A stretch of 64,000 nucleotides of DNA from Escherichia phage EJP2. The translations under genes were made by a program, and so were the position numbers. Shown here piece by piece: positions 4,738 through 59,765 of this stretch (position 1 is its first letter; each line of letters begins with the position of its first letter). The stretch lies in sequence record OQ411014.1; one strand, written 5' to 3'. The notes beneath the pieces are model-generated. The model was given only the letters and a program-made list of their open reading frames with translations. It made no database searches and had not been told where the DNA came from.

Positions 4738-4767
4738 TTGAGCATTCATAAAAAAATGTGATATAAT
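4738..4767 (+). promoter_or_regulatory. sigma70-type promoter with extended -10 (TGaTATAAT)
   Basis: TTGAGC 4738-4743 and TATAAT 4762-4767; nearly identical to the promoter at 58672-58701. Confidence 0.55.
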
Positions 4768-4773
4768 TAGTAC

Positions 4774-5320
4774 TACGGATGGTTAGCTATCCGTATTTTA
4801 AATTTGAATGACCAGTACTACATACTGGTACGTTTTAACCCTGATTCACTCGAAAATGTAGAGGACAGTTGAGTACGCATTCAAGTACGTTCAGCAGAAG
4901 AAACCCGTTAGGTGTAGGCATAGTTTGTACCTCCCACGGCAATGTGGCTGATTAAACCATGAAGAGTAATACGATGACTCATGGCTTGCTTATGGCATGA
5001 TAGACATATAAGGATCGCTCCTTACCAAAATGTATAAGGGAATCTTATAAATTTTTGTAGGACTGATTAGAGGCTTACCCTTGATCCGTCCAAAATTTGA
5101 AGATACAGTACAGTACTGTTTATGTGGTAATGTATTGATGCGTGCTAAGACCACGACCGTTGCATAGAAACGCGATAGGAAGAAACAGGGCAACCCGCTT
5201 CCGTTCTTAATAGAAATTCGTAACATAAAATGATGACACATACCAGCGTCAAACTTTGTTCTTCCCTCCCTGTGGGGGGATGAAAATGAATCTACAAAAC
5301 CTCGTCAAATAATAATAAGA
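4774..5320 (+). ncRNA. candidate structured noncoding RNA, copy A (unknown class)
   Basis: 740-nt gap between + genes with its own promoter and no conserved reading frame; shares blocks with the locus at 58.7 kb (CACUCGAAAAUGUAGAGG, GAAACCCGU, CACGACCGUUG, AAACAGGGCAACCCG, ACAAACCUCGUCAA); stem GGAAG/CUUCC at 5178-5202 covaries with GCUGG/CCAGC in copy B. Confidence 0.45.
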
Positions 5321-5476
5321 AAGTACTAAATCAATTAGAACGAACGCTAGTGAGTGATAATTGATTTAGTAACAGTAACGCTTCGCTAGAAGTGTTACTC
5401 GTTGTTTAAGAATAAAATAACTTAGTGAGTTTTGGTTCTTTTGTTGTTCACTAAGTCCCTATAGAGAGAATATTAG

Positions 5477-5998
5477 ATGCCAGTGAAATATAAATCCCTT
5501 GATGGTGTTGTGAAGTACAAAGATCAAATGACTGAACAGGAATTACAAGAGTTCAGTGGGTACAAAATCGAGGGCAGTGCGGCACGTATTTCATACATTG
5601 AAGAGTACAAAGACGGAGATTTACTAGGGAAAATTATCCTTAGAATGACAAAAGCCCCAATCATATTTCGGGTAGTATACAAGGGATATAATGAAATTCG
5701 GTACAATACTGGAAGTGTTTCATCTAGATATTGCAGTAATGGTGATGTTTTTTGTGGTGAAATGCTGAGATATGATATGAATGGGAAGCTACAGGTTCGG
5801 GACTTTTTGAATCTAGGCAAGAACGTAACTGATGATATTGTTACTGAATTTGGTATCTCTGATATACTACAGCATGAATTTACAGAAGAAGAGTTATTCC
5901 GACTCTATATGAAATACGATTCAGGATTTAGATTCGTATCGGAATATAATAGAACTCCTGAACACTTCGATTCAGTACTGAAGGCGTGTTTGGAATAA
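5477..5998 (+). CDS. hypothetical protein
   Basis: 173-aa ORF. Confidence 0.55.
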   Translation: MPVKYKSLDGVVKYKDQMTEQELQEFSGYKIEGSAARISYIEEYKDGDLLGKIILRMTKAPIIFRVVYKGYNEIRYNTGSVSSRYCSNGDVFCGEMLRYDMNGKLQVRDFLNLGKNVTDDIVTEFGISDILQHEFTEEELFRLYMKYDSGFRFVSEYNRTPEHFDSVLKACLE

Positions 5999-9309: not shown

Positions 9310-9836
9310 CAGTACTGAATGATTTTCTTAGAGATAGTAAGTACATTATTGATAATATTGCTGAAGAAATATCTATACCATCAATGGATGAGTTGATGAT
9401 GATATCAATGGACCCTGATGGTGGGTTGGTAAAAGTATATTACGATTTTGAACTGCACGTAATGTTCATGAAAAATCATTATGAACACGCTTCTGATATG
9501 TTGACACTTTATGATTTTGGGACGCATAAAAATTACCAACAACGTTTACCAGCAAACAAATCAAAGGATATGAAACTAAGTGTTTACAATTCTGCTGGTG
9601 TTACTATTCCGACTAAGATTTCTCTTGGTTCTGAAGAGGGAATCTTTTCTGCGGAATTAGTACATGATTCCAGTACTGAAGAAGCACTTGAAGTTATGCA
9701 AGTAATTTCTGAAGTACCTGACAGTACCAAAGGAATACTTACTATAAGAAATAAGTACAACGAACGATTACTTATAAAATGTAATGTGTTATTAGAACAA
9801 TATATACATGGAGTACTGAATGCAAATATGGTATAA
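9306..9836 (+). CDS. paralogous early-gene family member
   Basis: motif EEGIFSAELVHD; internal FGTHKNYQQRLPANKSK parallels FPTYSNFQQRFPSDKTK of the previous gene. Confidence 0.6.
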   Translation: MTVLNDFLRDSKYIIDNIAEEISIPSMDELMMISMDPDGGLVKVYYDFELHVMFMKNHYEHASDMLTLYDFGTHKNYQQRLPANKSKDMKLSVYNSAGVTIPTKISLGSEEGIFSAELVHDSSTEEALEVMQVISEVPDSTKGILTIRNKYNERLLIKCNVLLEQYIHGVLNANMV

Positions 9837-10113
9837 TGTAGTACAGAAGGATTGGGATGATAATGAAAAGACAGGGATGCGTTTCATTTCTGTTATCATT
9901 TCGAATGAAACTCGTTATGTTCTACGAGCGGATAAGAATGATGGCGTATGGGAATCATCTTTGTATCCAATGGGTTACAAATATTCTTTAGATGATGTTG
10001 CAAGTCTAGCTGATTCTATGATAGACTCAGTAAAGATTATGAAGTTCCTTGAACGTCCAGAGCTAACAACGGCTGATGATGTACAGGAATTTTTGGCGAC
10101 TTTACAAGGGTAA
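9820..10113 (+). CDS. hypothetical protein
   Basis: 97-aa ORF. Confidence 0.45.
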   Translation: MQIWYNVVQKDWDDNEKTGMRFISVIISNETRYVLRADKNDGVWESSLYPMGYKYSLDDVASLADSMIDSVKIMKFLERPELTTADDVQEFLATLQG

Positions 10114-39971: not shown

Positions 39972-40001
39972 TTGAGACAAAACTCAATACTATGATATAA
40001 T
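39972..40001 (+). promoter_or_regulatory. sigma70-type promoter with extended -10
   Basis: TTGAGA 39972-39977 and TGaTATAAT ending at 40001. Confidence 0.55.
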
Positions 40002-54994: not shown

Positions 54995-55021
54995 GTTTAG
55001 ACTCATGGAAGGAGGAAAATT

Positions 55022-55333
55022 ATGCAATACAGAACACCAGTACTGATCAATCGATACAAAAGTAAAGACTTTGATGTTTACATTGGTCGTGGGACAAAAT
55101 GGGGAAACCCGTTCCCAATCGATGAAGCATGTGGTCAAACTCGCCTAATCGTTATTGAAATGTACAGACACCAAATGTATGAATGGCTAGAAAATGGAAC
55201 CATCACTGTTCAGGATATTTTGGATTTATCGGGAAAAACCATTGCATGTTCTTGTGCACCAAAGGCATGTCATGGAGATATAATCATAGAGGTATTCAAT
55301 GAAATAGTGAGTATGATGAATGCAGGAACATAA
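55022..55333 (+). CDS. DUF4326-like protein
   Basis: YIGRGTKWGNPF motif near the N-terminus, as I recall for DUF4326 proteins. Confidence 0.45.
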   Translation: MQYRTPVLINRYKSKDFDVYIGRGTKWGNPFPIDEACGQTRLIVIEMYRHQMYEWLENGTITVQDILDLSGKTIACSCAPKACHGDIIIEVFNEIVSMMNAGT

Positions 55334-55721
55334 AATATATGACATCATTAAAACTCTTAAAACTTGTAAGAGAGTAACATTATCTGAAAAAGTTTACTGC
55401 GGTTTAAATGATAAAAAGTGTATCATGTTCGATTGTATAGATGATGGTGAATCCAGCATTAGTATTGCTAGTCCTAAGAATCCTAATGGTGATTTTATCT
55501 TCTGTACAGTTACTGATGAACTTGAATTTGTACTCGTCAAGAGTGATGGTGCACAATCTGAAATCTTAGACTTGAGTACTGAAGATAGATTCTTTCAACG
55601 AAGTTTACTCTTTGACTTATCATTAACCTATGATGAGTATCAATCAGTACTTCATAATTTCAACAAATTTTATAACGGACTAATCAGTACTGTTATAATC
55701 TATTCAACCGAGGTCATATAA
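55320..55721 (+). CDS. hypothetical protein
   Basis: 133-aa ORF. Confidence 0.5.
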   Translation: MQEHKIYDIIKTLKTCKRVTLSEKVYCGLNDKKCIMFDCIDDGESSISIASPKNPNGDFIFCTVTDELEFVLVKSDGAQSEILDLSTEDRFFQRSLLFDLSLTYDEYQSVLHNFNKFYNGLISTVIIYSTEVI

Positions 55722-56968
55722 TGTCAAAAAATATGCTCGAAAATATCATCGTAAAACACTACGCTGGTAGTATCGCTTATGGTACAAATACTCCCTTATC
55801 AGATGTTGATTTCCGTGGAATCTTTATGGCTCCAAAGGAATTCATCTTGTCTCCGTTCGTAAACGTAGGGGAAGCATCTGATTCAAAAGAAGAAGATACT
55901 AAATTCTACGAACTCAATAAGTTCATGAAACTAAATGTCGATGCGAACCCGAATATCCTCGAAACACTATGGGTCGATGATGAACACATCGTTGAAAGTA
56001 CTGAAATGTACCAACATCTTCGCAAGCACAGAAGTGAACTACTAAGTAATAAGATTGCATTTACTTATACTGGATTCGCATATAACCAAGTTCACCGCAT
56101 GAGCAACCATAATGGCTGGATGGATAAAGAGAGAATTGCTGAACGCAGACTCAATGAAATCATCGAAAAACATCCTTGTATTGAAGTGAAAGAGTGGATG
56201 TACGAATATTTCCCTCATTATGTCATTGACCGGATTGACTTCTCTAATGTAAAAGGTTATAGTGATGATGTTGATTTGGACTTGGATAAGTTCTTGCGTG
56301 ATAGTTCTCTGCAACTGATCAGTACTAAATCCTTAGCACAGCATCACTTCGTGCGTTTAGTACATAATTACTTACCACAGAAAGTACTTGACCGTGATTT
56401 CAACTTAGCTCATTTCAATACGAATCATGAACTAATTCACTACGGTGATAATATCTTTGCAGTAGTTCCAACTCAGGGGAAATCGAAAGTACTTTCAGTA
56501 CATAACGATTTAGTTTGGGATTCAAAGAAAGAACGTACTCCTGAAGAACTAAAAGTACTTCCATCTTTGATTGTGAAATTCAATCGCAAAGAATATGAAG
56601 AACTGAATGATAAACGCAAGCACTATCACAAGTGGAAAGAGAACCGTAACAGTATTCGTGCTGAACTGGAGTCAAAGAATGGCTTCGATACTAAGCACGC
56701 AATGCACGTGGTTCGTTTATTACGTACAGCAAAAGAAGCACTGTTGACTGGTGTCATCAACGTCAAACGTCCTGATGCGGAAGAATTACTTGCAATCCGT
56801 AATGGTGCTTGGACATATGAAGAAATGATGAAGTACTTTGAATCTGAATCTAAATTAGTAATGAACTTAGGTAAAACATCAAAAGTACTTCCATCGTCCC
56901 CAAACCGTAAACTAGCAACTCAATTAGTACTAGACTTACGTGAGATGCATTGGAAACAAGGAAAATAA
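55721..56968 (+). CDS. Pol-beta-superfamily nucleotidyltransferase
   Basis: N-terminal YAGSIAYGTNTPLSDVDFRGIF (GS...SDxD motif); 415 aa. Confidence 0.55.
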   Translation: MSKNMLENIIVKHYAGSIAYGTNTPLSDVDFRGIFMAPKEFILSPFVNVGEASDSKEEDTKFYELNKFMKLNVDANPNILETLWVDDEHIVESTEMYQHLRKHRSELLSNKIAFTYTGFAYNQVHRMSNHNGWMDKERIAERRLNEIIEKHPCIEVKEWMYEYFPHYVIDRIDFSNVKGYSDDVDLDLDKFLRDSSLQLISTKSLAQHHFVRLVHNYLPQKVLDRDFNLAHFNTNHELIHYGDNIFAVVPTQGKSKVLSVHNDLVWDSKKERTPEELKVLPSLIVKFNRKEYEELNDKRKHYHKWKENRNSIRAELESKNGFDTKHAMHVVRLLRTAKEALLTGVINVKRPDAEELLAIRNGAWTYEEMMKYFESESKLVMNLGKTSKVLPSSPNRKLATQLVLDLREMHWKQGK

Positions 56969-57927: not shown

Positions 57928-58293
57928 ATGACAACTAAAATTTTCCCTCAGAGTCTTATGAAGGATCTATCTTACGGTTACGGTACTACTAAGGTCATGG
58001 GTGATTATAATGAAAAGACTGATTCCTTCGCACCGGATATCGAATATGAAGTCTTACACAATGAACAGTGTAATACTACTCGTTGGAACAGTGTTCATGA
58101 TTTAGTTTTTCTTGACAAGAGTACTGGGAAAACGTATCATACACAGTATGAAGTTGGTCTTACCGAATCGCAGTATTTGAGTGCATTTGACTATGATAAA
58201 GAAGGTGTCGAATGTACTGAAGTACAAACGTGGGAAGAGCAAGTTACCTATACAGTGTTAAAATGGCGGGATAAAAATGATTCAAGATATTGA
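57928..58293 (+). CDS. hypothetical protein
   Basis: 121-aa ORF. Confidence 0.5.
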   Translation: MTTKIFPQSLMKDLSYGYGTTKVMGDYNEKTDSFAPDIEYEVLHNEQCNTTRWNSVHDLVFLDKSTGKTYHTQYEVGLTESQYLSAFDYDKEGVECTEVQTWEEQVTYTVLKWRDKNDSRY

Positions 58294-58666
58294 TTTTTCT
58301 AATTTGGAATACGTCAGTGCAGTCAAAAATATCAGTACTGAAGATGATATCAAATACGTTACTACTACGATTACGTTCTTGCGTAAAGAAGATAGTATTG
58401 CTCATCTAACTGGACTTGAGAAGACTTTCGCTGAACTCAAATTACAAGAAGAATCAAAGTACATCAAACTTGCTTCGGTGTACACTACGGTTGAAGATGT
58501 TATCCAGAAAGATGAGCCAATTAAGGTGATTTTTTCTGGGATAAATAAAAAGTACCGGCAGGTTACTCGTTCTGAAACGGATGAGAACATGCACATTATT
58601 CTGAATGACATTCAGTTCGTAGATATGGTTTTTGACCGTTCTGAAAATAAACATGTTTACATGTAG
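58277..58666 (+). CDS. hypothetical protein
   Basis: 129-aa ORF. Confidence 0.5.
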   Translation: MIQDIDFSNLEYVSAVKNISTEDDIKYVTTTITFLRKEDSIAHLTGLEKTFAELKLQEESKYIKLASVYTTVEDVIQKDEPIKVIFSGINKKYRQVTRSETDENMHIILNDIQFVDMVFDRSENKHVYM

Positions 58667-58671
58667 TATTT

Positions 58672-58701
58672 TTGAGATGAATGAAAATTTTGTGATATAA
58701 T
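58672..58701 (+). promoter_or_regulatory. sigma70-type promoter with extended -10 (TGTGATATAAT)
   Basis: TTGAGA 58672-58677 and TATAAT 58696-58701; near-identical to the promoter at 4738-4767. Confidence 0.55.
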
Positions 58702-58707
58702 GTATAG

Positions 58708-59235
58708 TACGGATAACACCTATGTTGAATGTCTTTGATAAACAGAACCTGATCCACTCGAAAATGTAGAGGGCAGATGAGTAGAACATTCACTACGAAG
58801 TGCAAATGAAACCCGTCAGTAATAAAGCGTAAGTGCGGTCATACAAACGAGACGTAAGACACACGCGACACGGCAAAGCGGCACTATAAAAGCGATAAGA
58901 AAACATATTCGCTCTTGATAGACTTATGAGGCATACTCACCCAGTTGAAAGGGAGTCTCTTTACGGAGAGACAGCAGTATTTGTTGCTGAATTAGCAAGT
59001 ACTGTAAGCGTGTGAGGAACACGACCGTTGTATGCAGACTGTAGTAGCTGGAAACAGGACAACCCGCCAGCGTTGCTACTTTTATTTGTACGGGAAAGAT
59101 CCGTCCAAAAAGTAGTGAATCTACAAATTCAGATTGGTAAGACTACCAGCGTCAGGATATTCCTGATTTTTTTTCGGCCCTCCCTTGTGGGGGGATGGAA
59201 TTGGATCAACAAACCTCGTCAAGTATAATATGAAT
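58708..59235 (+). ncRNA. candidate structured noncoding RNA, copy B (unknown class)
   Basis: 688-nt intergenic gap with promoter; shares sequence blocks with locus A and the covarying stem GCUGG/CCAGC at 59047-59071; the only ORF (59028-59228) starts with TTG and its frame is not conserved in copy A. Confidence 0.45.
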
Positions 59236-59354
59236 AGTATTAGTACTTAATAATTCAAATGAATTGAGAGATATGAGATGAGCGATAGCGAAATCGAATA
59301 TGTCTCAATTCTTGGCTTACGCAGTAAGCCAACGAAACATTACAGGAGCTTATC

Positions 59355-59765
59355 ATGAGTCAGTTAGAACCAATTGTAGGATCTTATAATATTTTCTTCA
59401 AAGATACCAATGTAACACCAAGCAGTTCATATAACCAAAATACACGTGTAAGTACTTACACAATTGAGCATTTAAGTACTGGCAAGAATTTCAGTACTGA
59501 ATACGGGAAGTACGTCCAGAAGAACTCCGATTGTTTTCAGCTATTTCGTAACTCCCCACGTCAAGATATTTTACTAATCACAAACGAAGTGGAGTTCCGT
59601 CAAAGATCTCTTGATTTCCCTAATGCAGTTCATTATACTATTAGTGATATCGACTTCATCAAAGTACTTGTTCATTACGACGAAGTATCAAAGGTAAGTA
59701 CTTTTGAGGATTTGTCTTTTGATGAAGTAATTGCACTCAAGGATAAACTATATGAAAGCAAGTGA
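59355..59765 (+). CDS. hypothetical protein
   Basis: 136-aa ORF with RBS AGGAG. Confidence 0.55.
   Translation: MSQLEPIVGSYNIFFKDTNVTPSSSYNQNTRVSTYTIEHLSTGKNFSTEYGKYVQKNSDCFQLFRNSPRQDILLITNEVEFRQRSLDFPNAVHYTISDIDFIKVLVHYDEVSKVSTFEDLSFDEVIALKDKLYESK

Follow-up and report, generated by a model that had tools for sequence, protein, structure and literature searches.

Comparative evidence for a large pseudoknotted RNA encoded at several sites in the genomes of RaK2-like jumbo phages

Locus B and the fold of its RNA

The stretch of DNA analysed here (the window) comprises 64,000 nucleotides (nt) of Escherichia phage EJP2 (OQ411014.1) and contains, at positions 58672–59354, a noncoding region termed locus B that is bounded by open reading frames (ORFs) ending at 58666 and starting at 59355. 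Comparative analysis shows locus B to be the gene for a large RNA that is predicted to act through its fold, with a core of ~0.5 kb and, between its inferred start and terminal hairpin, a length of ~0.63 kb. The initial annotation of the window had proposed a functional structured-RNA gene family rather than spacer, and this proposal is borne out on three counts: pairs covary in 32 + 34 distinct copies, no ORF is kept among them, and the RNA is conserved far more strongly than the proteins encoded next to it. Conservation and covariation are thereby found past the two copies that the window itself contains.

Locus B opens with a promoter, of which both the TTGAGA element at 58672–58677 and the extended −10 element ending at 58701 are found where they had been annotated. 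A profile hidden Markov model (HMM) detects exactly two copies of the RNA in the window, at 4838–5307 (locus A; E = 1e-103) and at 58746–59221 (locus B; E = 1e-94), 53.9 kb apart, and no further copy within the 64 kb. The conserved blocks that had been described as common to the two loci are all recovered: the window contains precisely two instances of the 18-mer CACTCGAAAATGTAGAGG (4847 and 58755; chance expectation 0.01), CACGACCGTTG lies at 5152 and 59020, and AAACAGGACAACCCG lies at 59052, with a counterpart at 5183 in locus A that carries one mismatch. The minimum-free-energy (MFE) fold of the inferred transcript (58708–59335) has a z-score of −5.7 relative to shuffles. The features of the two loci, with P denoting helices and PK pseudoknots, are as follows.

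4738–5478, + strand: locus A, the second paralogue in the window, with promoter (4738–4767), 5′ hairpin (4774–4795) and core (4838–5309)
58672–58701, + strand: promoter of locus B, with TTGAGA (−35-like) at 58672–58677, a spacer of 18 nt and the extended −10 element TGATATAAT at 58693–58701
58708–58745, + strand: 5′ leader of locus B, its start inferred ~7 nt past the −10 element
58746–59223, + strand: conserved RNA core of ~478 nt (nhmmer E = 1e-94; 32-copy alignment)
58749–58776, + strand: hairpin P1/P1b, CUG/CAG and CACUC/GAGGG with loop GAAAAUGUA; 96.9% and 81.6% paired, with exchanges among CG, AU and GC at columns 15/29
58781–58796, + strand: hairpin P2, GUAG/CUAC; three of four pairs change on both sides (UA/CG/AU)
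58799–58885, + strand: long-range helix P3, AGUGC/GCACU; three pairs with double changes in P3 and P4 together
58813–58816 with 58870–58873, + strand: P4, CCGU/ACGG, within P3, with a variable extension at 58817–58869
58975–59004, + strand: P9, a 12-bp hairpin, CAGUAUUUGUUG with UAGCAAGUACUG; both-side changes in 10 of 12 pairs, 91.6% paired
58988–59131, + strand: pseudoknot PK1, P9 loop UGAAU (58988–58992) with AUUCA (59127–59131); all five pairs change on both sides
59010–59022, + strand: hairpin GUGU/ACAC, running into the invariant CGACCGUUG; both-side changes in three of four pairs
59027–59063, + strand: pseudoknot PK2, GUUGU (59027–59031) with ACAAC (59059–59063) in the P11 loop; closing pair CG, UA or AU
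59040–59125, + strand: long-range helix P10, UGUAG (59040–59044) with CUACA (59121–59125); 99.4% paired, four of five pairs covary
59047–59051 with 59067–59071, + strand: P11, GCUGG/CCAGC, inside P10
59075–59116, + strand: P11a, a hairpin inserted inside P10 that bears the GAUCCGUCCAAA module at 59098–59109
59145–59156, + strand: block 7, ACCAGCGUCAGG, pattern A-Y-C-A-N-Y-G-U-C-A-R, first half of a direct repeat
59151–59175, + strand: internal terminator-like hairpin GUCAGGA-UAU-UCCUGAU followed by U8, with a 7-bp stem, three G-C pairs and a 3-nt loop
59178–59195, + strand: P13, GC hairpin CCCUCCC-UUGU-GGGGGGA; 93.8% paired
59213–59223, + strand: block 9, ACCUCGUCAAG, pattern A-Y-C-N-Y-G-U-C-A-R, second repeat half, forming the 3′ edge of the core
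59224–59260, + strand: A+T-rich linker (82% A+T over 50 nt)
59261–59311, + strand: 3′ domain, stem GAAUUGAGAGAUAU...AUAUGUCUCAAUUC with a GAGCGAUAGCGA-type loop, from the MFE fold
59312–59332, + strand: terminal hairpin UUGGCUUAC-GCA-GUAAGCCAA, 22 nt before the start codon of the next gene; z = −5.6

The fold was modelled on 32 distinct copies from MAFFT alignments with anchored helices, using a scan of column pairs together with inspection, and the variable hairpins P5, P6, P8, P11a and P12 were kept outside the helix scoring. The resulting model comprises 12 helices, including the two pseudoknots, which are linked by near-invariant single-stranded blocks, and throughout the alignments such blocks alternate with variable helices and insertions. 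Standard pairs occupy 94.8% of the cells, both sides change in 38 of the 62 model pairs, and the covariation score reaches 0.542 compared with 0.196 in shuffles, none of 500 of which attains the observed value. As a control, the 3′ partners were slid by 1–3 columns, upon which pairing falls to 35–50%. An independent test set of 34 distinct metagenomic copies, which were unused in model building, is 93.7% paired. PK1, P3, P4, P11 and PK2 are each 100% paired. We consider this evidence for a structured RNA, drawn from aligned sequences, to be as strong as comparative analysis allows.

The stem GCUGG/CCAGC, which had initially been singled out as covarying, corresponds to P11, where four of the five pairs covary. 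Its proposed extension to ~11 bp is feasible in locus B alone and gives way to P10 in the comparison, which pairs UGUAG with CUACA and assigns GCUAC (59075–59079) to a separate inserted hairpin. The periphery of the RNA is variable, such that the P4 extension is replaced by a UUCG loop in other copies, and a hairpin-tip module (AUAGAUCCGUCCAAA; (A)GAUCCGUCCAAA) occupies two alternative sites, namely 59098–59109 in locus B (after P11) and 5083–5094 in locus A (after the AAGGGAG block). A positional swap of this kind is typical of peripheral elements in large RNAs. We note that some copies hold the module at both sites.

The internal hairpin with its T8 run (−7.9 kcal/mol) and the CCCUCCC/GGGGGGA hairpin are present as annotated. 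The former has the sequence-level hallmarks of an intrinsic terminator, namely a G+C-containing hairpin with a U run directly after it, and it sits within the conserved RNA between two blocks rather than at the end of the RNA. Among the five paralogue types (A to E) described below, it is present in B-, C- and D-type copies and missing from the A and E types. Variation lends P13 little support, because only C↔U changes are seen opposite an invariant G run. At the other end of the RNA, the 5′ leader of most other copies forms a hairpin followed by a U run, which is degenerate in locus B (−1.4 kcal/mol). The 5′ hairpin of locus A (4774–4795; −11.4 kcal/mol) precedes a U-rich run just past the inferred start and scores as terminator-like in the scan despite its 5′ position.

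Blocks 7 and 9, which have their equivalents at 5242–5253 and 5299–5309 in locus A, form a co-evolving direct repeat. In 77 of 78 distinct copies the two blocks, of 10–11 nt each, agree at the first Y (mutual information, 1.0 bit), and the second Y as well as a third variable position match in all 78. In a divergent subfamily, GUCA is switched to GAAG in both blocks together. These changes run in parallel rather than as complements, and the core of the 78 copies offers no column that could be a complementary partner for either block. Three candidate partners were rejected: the invariant GAUGAG (58777–58782) pairs with CUCGUC of block 9 in many copies and fails where the block sequences differ, GAC immediately upstream of block 7 fits only some copies, and pairing of block 9 with the UUGAC/CUUGGC segment would overlap the conserved terminal hairpin. 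This pattern suggests that blocks 7 and 9 are read by one partner, or that they alternate in pairing with one strand.

Past the core, every copy examined carries a 50-nt tract of 74–82% A+T, which lies ~590 nt from the promoter and ranks in the top 0.2–2.6% of the 50-nt windows of the genome, intergenic DNA being generally A+T-rich. A 3′ domain follows in all phage copies, with the stem GAAUUGA...GAAAAUUC and, in other copies, a GAACGNAGUGA-type loop. The perfect 9-bp stem-loop that had been noted at 59312–59332 is present (−12.7 kcal/mol) and constitutes a conserved terminal element up to which the conserved features run; its counterpart elsewhere is UUAGACAAUC-GAA-GAUUGGCUAA, with both the position and a G-N-A triloop conserved. 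In addition, all C-type copies (L042:95–515, which is Hallingskeid 196095–196515 on the minus strand, and L020, L024, L028, L006, L013 and L015) show a conserved bidirectional terminator (A7–8 CCAGC...GCTGG T-rich) located 40–60 nt past the terminal hairpin, which in Hallingskeid is shared with a convergent baseplate-hub gene.

The longest open stretch is 38–80 amino acids (aa) per copy, with 6–10 stops per frame in locus B, and no frame is conserved, since 1-nt indels that break the frame occur inside the most conserved blocks. Between EJP2 and Erwinia phage Hallingskeid the RNA is 82–88% identical, whereas the flanking proteins are only 25–40% identical. Some GenBank records (PQ464590, LT960551, MK773491 and others) place ‘hypothetical proteins’ of 33–70 aa across the RNA, some with annotated ribosome-binding sites, and these small coding-sequence calls are almost certainly spurious.

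The RNA also falls outside described families. Searches of the whole window against Rfam 15, which takes in GOLLD, ROOL, OLE, HEARO, group I/II introns, RNase P, tmRNA and 6S, yield no match at gathering thresholds, relaxing the cutoff to E ≤ 10 for 58500–59500 yields only noise (E ≥ 1.2) far under the gathering scores, ARAGORN finds no tRNA or tmRNA, and the searchable literature holds no prior description of this jumbo-phage RNA family that we could find. Kinship with E. coli rRNA or another host RNA was rejected, as blastn against 5,426 E. coli genomes returned no rRNA match (and turned up the island copy described below). A sigma-70-like promoter at the 3′ end of locus B (TTGGAT at 59201–59206, N17, TATAAT at 59224–59229) was likewise set aside, as it is not kept in other copies. 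Upstream of locus B, a DUF7325 protein is encoded at 58277–58666.

Distribution, five-copy layout and mobility

EJP2 is a RaK2-like jumbo phage whose closest record is Hallingskeid, with the Salmonella phages Munch, 7t3 and SE_PL also close. Homologues of the RNA are held by ~70 sequenced RaK2-like jumbo phages, at 3–5 places per genome, and the hosts of these phages span Escherichia, Salmonella, Klebsiella, Erwinia, Yersinia, Serratia, Cronobacter and Pectobacterium, plus two ‘Xanthomonas’ records. Pattern scans recover 30 loci in IMG/VR and ~70 true homologues in metagenomes. Only two matches arise from 100,044 prokaryotic species genomes, both apparently on phage contigs. Two homologues stand in records labelled as bacterial (L035, DPOH01000171, a ‘Clostridium sp.’ metagenome-assembled genome, and L037, a 299-kb contig of Enterobacteriaceae bacterium RIT714), which are most likely jumbo-phage contigs that were binned or assembled with a host. 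The divergent subfamily is known from metagenomes only (L065:1000–1650 on the minus strand, L142:8087–8560 on the minus strand, L143:1150–1535 and L086); it retains the 3′ half of the core, differs in the 5′ half and carries CGAAG in place of CGUCA in both repeat blocks. Locus L065 sits between an MFS transporter gene and genes for giant BNR/RCC1-like proteins, and a sequence at L083:900–1050 is more distant than the rest of the subfamily.

The two diverged copies ~54 kb apart that had been recognised at the outset are indeed the only ones in the window, yet the family numbers five in each of the three genomes mapped in full (Hallingskeid, Munch and pEa_SNUABM_49). In the complete Hallingskeid genome the copies number exactly five and share the main coding strand, lying at 341.5, 276.2, 197.0, 119.9 and 53.2 kb. 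The gaps between them, including the one across the genome ends, are 66.7, 77.0, 79.2, 65.3 and 77.8 kb, and a minimum gap of this size has a probability of ~1.4e-4 under random placement. The same five positions are occupied in Munch (gaps of 59.6, 81.9, 80.9, 53.4 and 74.2 kb) and in pEa_SNUABM_49 (63.3, 81.8, 84.4, 76.8 and 51.6 kb), and CBB, BF and GAP32 agree at the readable positions. Five copies on the same strand, 52–84 kb apart, thus tile a genome of ~350 kb. Orthologues are closer to one another than are paralogues, and the five copies are therefore older than these phage genera, the arrangement having been kept over deep divergence. The genes that flank the paralogues are unrelated among themselves by blastp, and duplication of a block including flanking genes was rejected, as no paralogous flanking genes were found. 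At A, B, D and E the RNA extends to within 10–50 nt of the next gene, whereas Hallingskeid copy C and the metagenomic locus L065 have a convergent gene downstream and no co-oriented one.

Each RNA copy has a promoter of its own, from a sigma-70-type class that also serves tRNA and DNA-synthesis genes. On the main strand of Hallingskeid there are 28 sites matching TGTGATATAAT, against two on the opposite strand, and GGGAYA-N10–14-TGnTATAAT occurs 15 times, always on the main strand; five of these 15 sites drive the RNA copies and two lie directly upstream of tRNA genes. Other class sites in Hallingskeid precede genes for DHFR and SSB and genes of the helicase region. The near-identity of the promoters of loci A and B, which the initial annotation had stressed, is therefore genuine but not special to these loci, because both belong to one phage promoter class with 15–28 sites per genome. 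Two further promoters of the class (T[TG]G[AG]G-N-TGnTATAAT) lie in the window at 9809–9837 and 39972–40001, with no RNA after them. The RNA copies of CBB- and GAP32-type phages bear a TGAAACG box instead, which in CBB defines the ‘divergent RpoD-like’ class located chiefly ahead of DNA-synthesis genes (PMC5259590).

An intact copy of the RNA is present in 2 of 5,426 complete E. coli genomes (HMM E = 8e-105), with standard pairs at 60 of the 62 model positions and a phage-type promoter. In E. coli LR-29-1 (NZ_AP027515; L047:8890–9545) it resides in an island of ~10.8 kb between ffs and ybaA (L047:4958–15302) that holds a P4-like integrase split by IS3, a resolvase and the candidate defence systems PDC-M45 (DuOB-DUF488-mSLOG/DUF4326) and PDC-S16. 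The nearest phage relative of the island copy, at 80.6% identity, is the C-type copy of Serratia phage BF and the pEa_SNUABM phages. Rfam yields only sub-threshold noise on the island copy. The captured unit stops just past block 9 and is joined to the ~800-nt leader of a two-gene module, which encodes a membrane protein of 257/274 aa (80% identical between the two loci) and a protein of ~118 aa (L047:9552–11398 and L149:4902–6891), and which is present but unaccompanied by the RNA in ~52 other E. coli genomes, beside a STAND ATPase for instance. Promoter and core are thus shown to be an autonomous, transferable unit. The module leader may itself be a structured or regulatory RNA. Defence-type islands of ~52 other E. 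coli genomes share its first ~100 nt, and a stretch lower in it gives a weak sub-threshold match to IS102 RNA.

The only island protein with a phage homologue is the DUF4326-like one (tblastn E = 1e-14). The DUF4326-like ORF of the EJP2 window lies at 55016–55306, followed by the gene for RlaP, an RNA-repair-associated nucleotidyltransferase (55721–56968), a few kb upstream of locus B.

Candidate functions

As our leading model, we tentatively propose that the RNA works in cis, at its own site of synthesis, as a replication-origin transcript resembling those of T4 oriF and ColE1. Host RNA polymerase would start at the promoter, and the folded core would hold the nascent RNA off the template as far as the A+T-rich tract, where the RNA would form a persistent RNA-DNA hybrid, perhaps aided by the conserved G6 run. 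The hybrid would then prime leading-strand synthesis in the same direction as most genes, such that five co-directed, evenly spaced origins would each replicate ~70 kb, and the copy in the host island would be a decoy origin or a means by which the island is amplified upon phage infection. In its favour, the model would account for how the copies are spaced and oriented, for a promoter class in common with replication genes, for the A+T tract and for capture by a host island. That copy C and L065 face convergent genes, and that promoter and core moved alone into the island, is consistent with a stand-alone element rather than a gene leader. A T4-type replisome is present in RaK2-like phages (genome annotations; PMC5259590). 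T4 itself has at least five early origins, of which oriF and oriG each combine a middle-mode promoter with an unwinding element rich in A+T; the R-loop formed by their transcript primes one-directional synthesis, and the cloned origins replicate plasmids during infection (PMC3016281).

Several observations weigh against an origin transcript. The even spacing is one inherited arrangement in syntenic genomes and does not amount to many independent observations. We know of no origin transcript with a comparably elaborate, pseudoknotted and conserved fold, and the bacterial RNAs of comparable complexity known to us are all ribozymes, RNA-protein particles or self-assembling RNAs. The terminator-like hairpin with its U run lies upstream of the A+T tract in three of the five paralogue types and, if efficient, would cut the primer short. 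The co-evolving direct repeat is left unaccounted for by the model, and plasmids give no match to the RNA element. Furthermore, GC skew tracks gene orientation and shows no origin-type switch at the five loci, although such a switch is a weak criterion because it is also missing at T4 oriA and oriC (PMC3016281).

Alternatively, the five genes may supply a compact folded RNA that works in trans, away from its gene, a reading that we regard as possible but doubtful, and about as probable as the origin transcript. Such an RNA could serve a protein of the phage or the host as scaffold or partner, or act as a ribozyme, a ROOL/GOLLD-like self-assembling particle or an anti-defence decoy, and the island copy would then be an interfering variant. 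Complexity and conservation of this degree are typical of ribozymes and RNA-protein particles, the promoter class also serves tRNA genes, and several paralogues with the same core suggest gene dosage. The bidirectional terminator within ~250 nt of copy C would define a discrete transcript, the unit travels as an autonomous cassette into a defence island, and no neighbouring gene is conserved. However, a trans-acting RNA leaves the even spacing and co-orientation of the five copies unaccounted for, as duplicated RNA genes usually cluster, and the fixed terminal repeats of CBB (PMC5259590) disfavour the idea that spacing guarantees the early entry of one copy. Nor is there a linked gene for a partner protein, and both the internal terminator-like hairpin and the extension of the RNA to the ribosome-binding site of the next gene at four of five loci go unexplained.

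The latter two features would instead fit a nascent RNA that, alone or with a phage protein, modified its own RNA polymerase for passage through terminators (processive antitermination), or formed a regulated leader, and so licensed long transcription units on the same strand; by co-opting the element, the defence island would have rendered its two-gene module dependent on infection. We consider this unlikely. The hairpin and U run occupy a fixed internal site in B-, C- and D-type and island copies, all copies are oriented with the main gene strand, and the RNA ends 10–50 nt from the next gene at A, B, D and E. In the E. coli island, promoter and core run straight into the leader of a module which, at its other locations, is preceded by an upstream region of its own, and the repeat blocks lie beside complementary GAC/GAUG segments that allow alternative pairings. 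The put RNA of phage HK022 offers a precedent. Yet the RNA is ~10 times bigger than any known antitermination RNA, it would yield antisense RNA at copy C and L065, where a convergent gene is faced, and the element is found at only 5 of the 15–28 promoters of the class. Moreover, read-through does not require even spacing, and the A and E types are without the internal hairpin and U run.

A riboswitch-like sensor in the 5′ untranslated region, responding to a small molecule or a tRNA and controlling the gene just downstream, would fit a conserved fold upstream of genes with alternative pairings as a possible expression platform, but is highly improbable. It is heavily disfavoured by the mutual unrelatedness (blastp) of the genes downstream of the five paralogues; in addition, no co-oriented gene follows two of the copies, the ribosome-binding site is left uncovered by the terminal hairpin, and the size is far past that of known aptamers. 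Finally, the view that there is no RNA at all, and that the locus holds small protein-coding genes (as the annotated 33–70-aa proteins would have it) or a DNA-level repeat such as an array of protein-binding sites or a recombination site (which the two co-evolving direct repeats could in principle be), is effectively refuted by covariation, since compensatory changes on both sides of 38 of 62 pairs, on one strand only, are predicted by no DNA-site or coding model, and the stops and frame-breaking indels also stand against it.

Comparison with known systems and implications

The origin-transcript model draws on two known systems. ColE1 RNA II is a promoter-driven transcript of ~550 nt, the fold of which decides whether a persistent hybrid forms ~0.55 kb downstream, with a G-rich segment implicated. 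It has no homology to the jumbo-phage RNA and differs in its simple stem-loops, its antisense RNA I and its single copy per plasmid. The T4 origins oriF/ori(uvsY) and oriG/ori(34) resemble the jumbo-phage loci in that a promoter, built from an upstream box specific to the phage and a sigma-70 −10 element, precedes an A+T-rich tract, in their number (at least five per genome) and in the T4-type replisome of the phage, and the T4 element works when moved (PMC3016281). In contrast, the T4 origins share no sequence with each other, need ~100 bp and are without a conserved folded RNA, whereas the jumbo-phage loci place ~590 nt of structured RNA between promoter and A+T tract, are all homologous and are putative origins.

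Other structured RNAs resemble the jumbo-phage RNA in part. Like EAR-type RNAs, HK022 put is a structured RNA located just past a phage promoter that acts in cis on the polymerase with no linked protein gene, but it measures ~70 nt and forms two stem-loops, as opposed to a core of ~480 nt with two pseudoknots and two copies that face convergent genes. The pRNA of phi29 is phage-encoded, structured and made from an early promoter, and its covarying loop-to-strand complementarity resembles PK1; however, it is 174 nt long, single-copy and unrelated in sequence, and T4-like phages do not use a phi29-type packaging motor. GOLLD, ROOL and OLE are highly structured noncoding RNAs of several hundred nt with poorly known functions, GOLLD and ROOL being often borne by phages or prophages. 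Searching with their Rfam models leaves the jumbo-phage RNA unmatched even at E ≤ 10, and these RNAs occur in other hosts (Firmicutes and others) and are not known as five evenly spaced paralogues. The RaK2-related jumbo phage PA5oct produces abundant noncoding transcripts of 236–619 nt, ncRNA001–004, that were defined by RNA sequencing (PMC7318152). Among these, ncRNA002 was considered as a relative and rejected, as it has no sequence similarity to the family, is without the conserved blocks and gives no match in an HMM search with all filters off; ncRNA001, which lies in the same searched stretch, gives no HMM match either, ncRNA003 and ncRNA004 being outside this comparison. We rate the jumbo-phage RNA as a new class because it lies outside every Rfam family (tested), because GOLLD, ROOL and OLE are alike only in kind, and because the working analogues differ in size, conservation and copy arrangement.

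Large and intricate RNAs of bacteria and phages are rare, and each such class (RNase P, OLE, GOLLD and ROOL) has opened new biology. The covariation observed here is unusually clean and extends over dozens of sequences, and the way in which the copies are arranged in the genome is unusual. The RNA can be tested at the bench at once, because it is carried by cultivable phages, in use for phage therapy and biocontrol, that infect E. coli, Salmonella, Klebsiella and Erwinia. Moreover, the strings of tiny hypothetical proteins that GenBank records place at these loci need replacing.

Five ancient paralogues at intervals of ~70 kb point to a folded RNA that is tied to chromosome-scale processes in giant viruses, and their layout suggests a role in phage replication or transcription. 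RaK2-group phages may, as we cautiously put it, mark five co-oriented, evenly placed sites with a ribozyme-sized pseudoknotted RNA that acts at its site of transcription, either to start replication or to organise the chromosome. That an E. coli defence island harbours an intact copy suggests exploitation of the element by hosts, and could reveal a new way to sense or sabotage jumbo phages. If the origin-transcript model is true, these phages would possess an origin system specified by an RNA fold, without known counterpart, and the unit's presence in bacterial defence islands would reflect its capture as a decoy or switch that the phage triggers.

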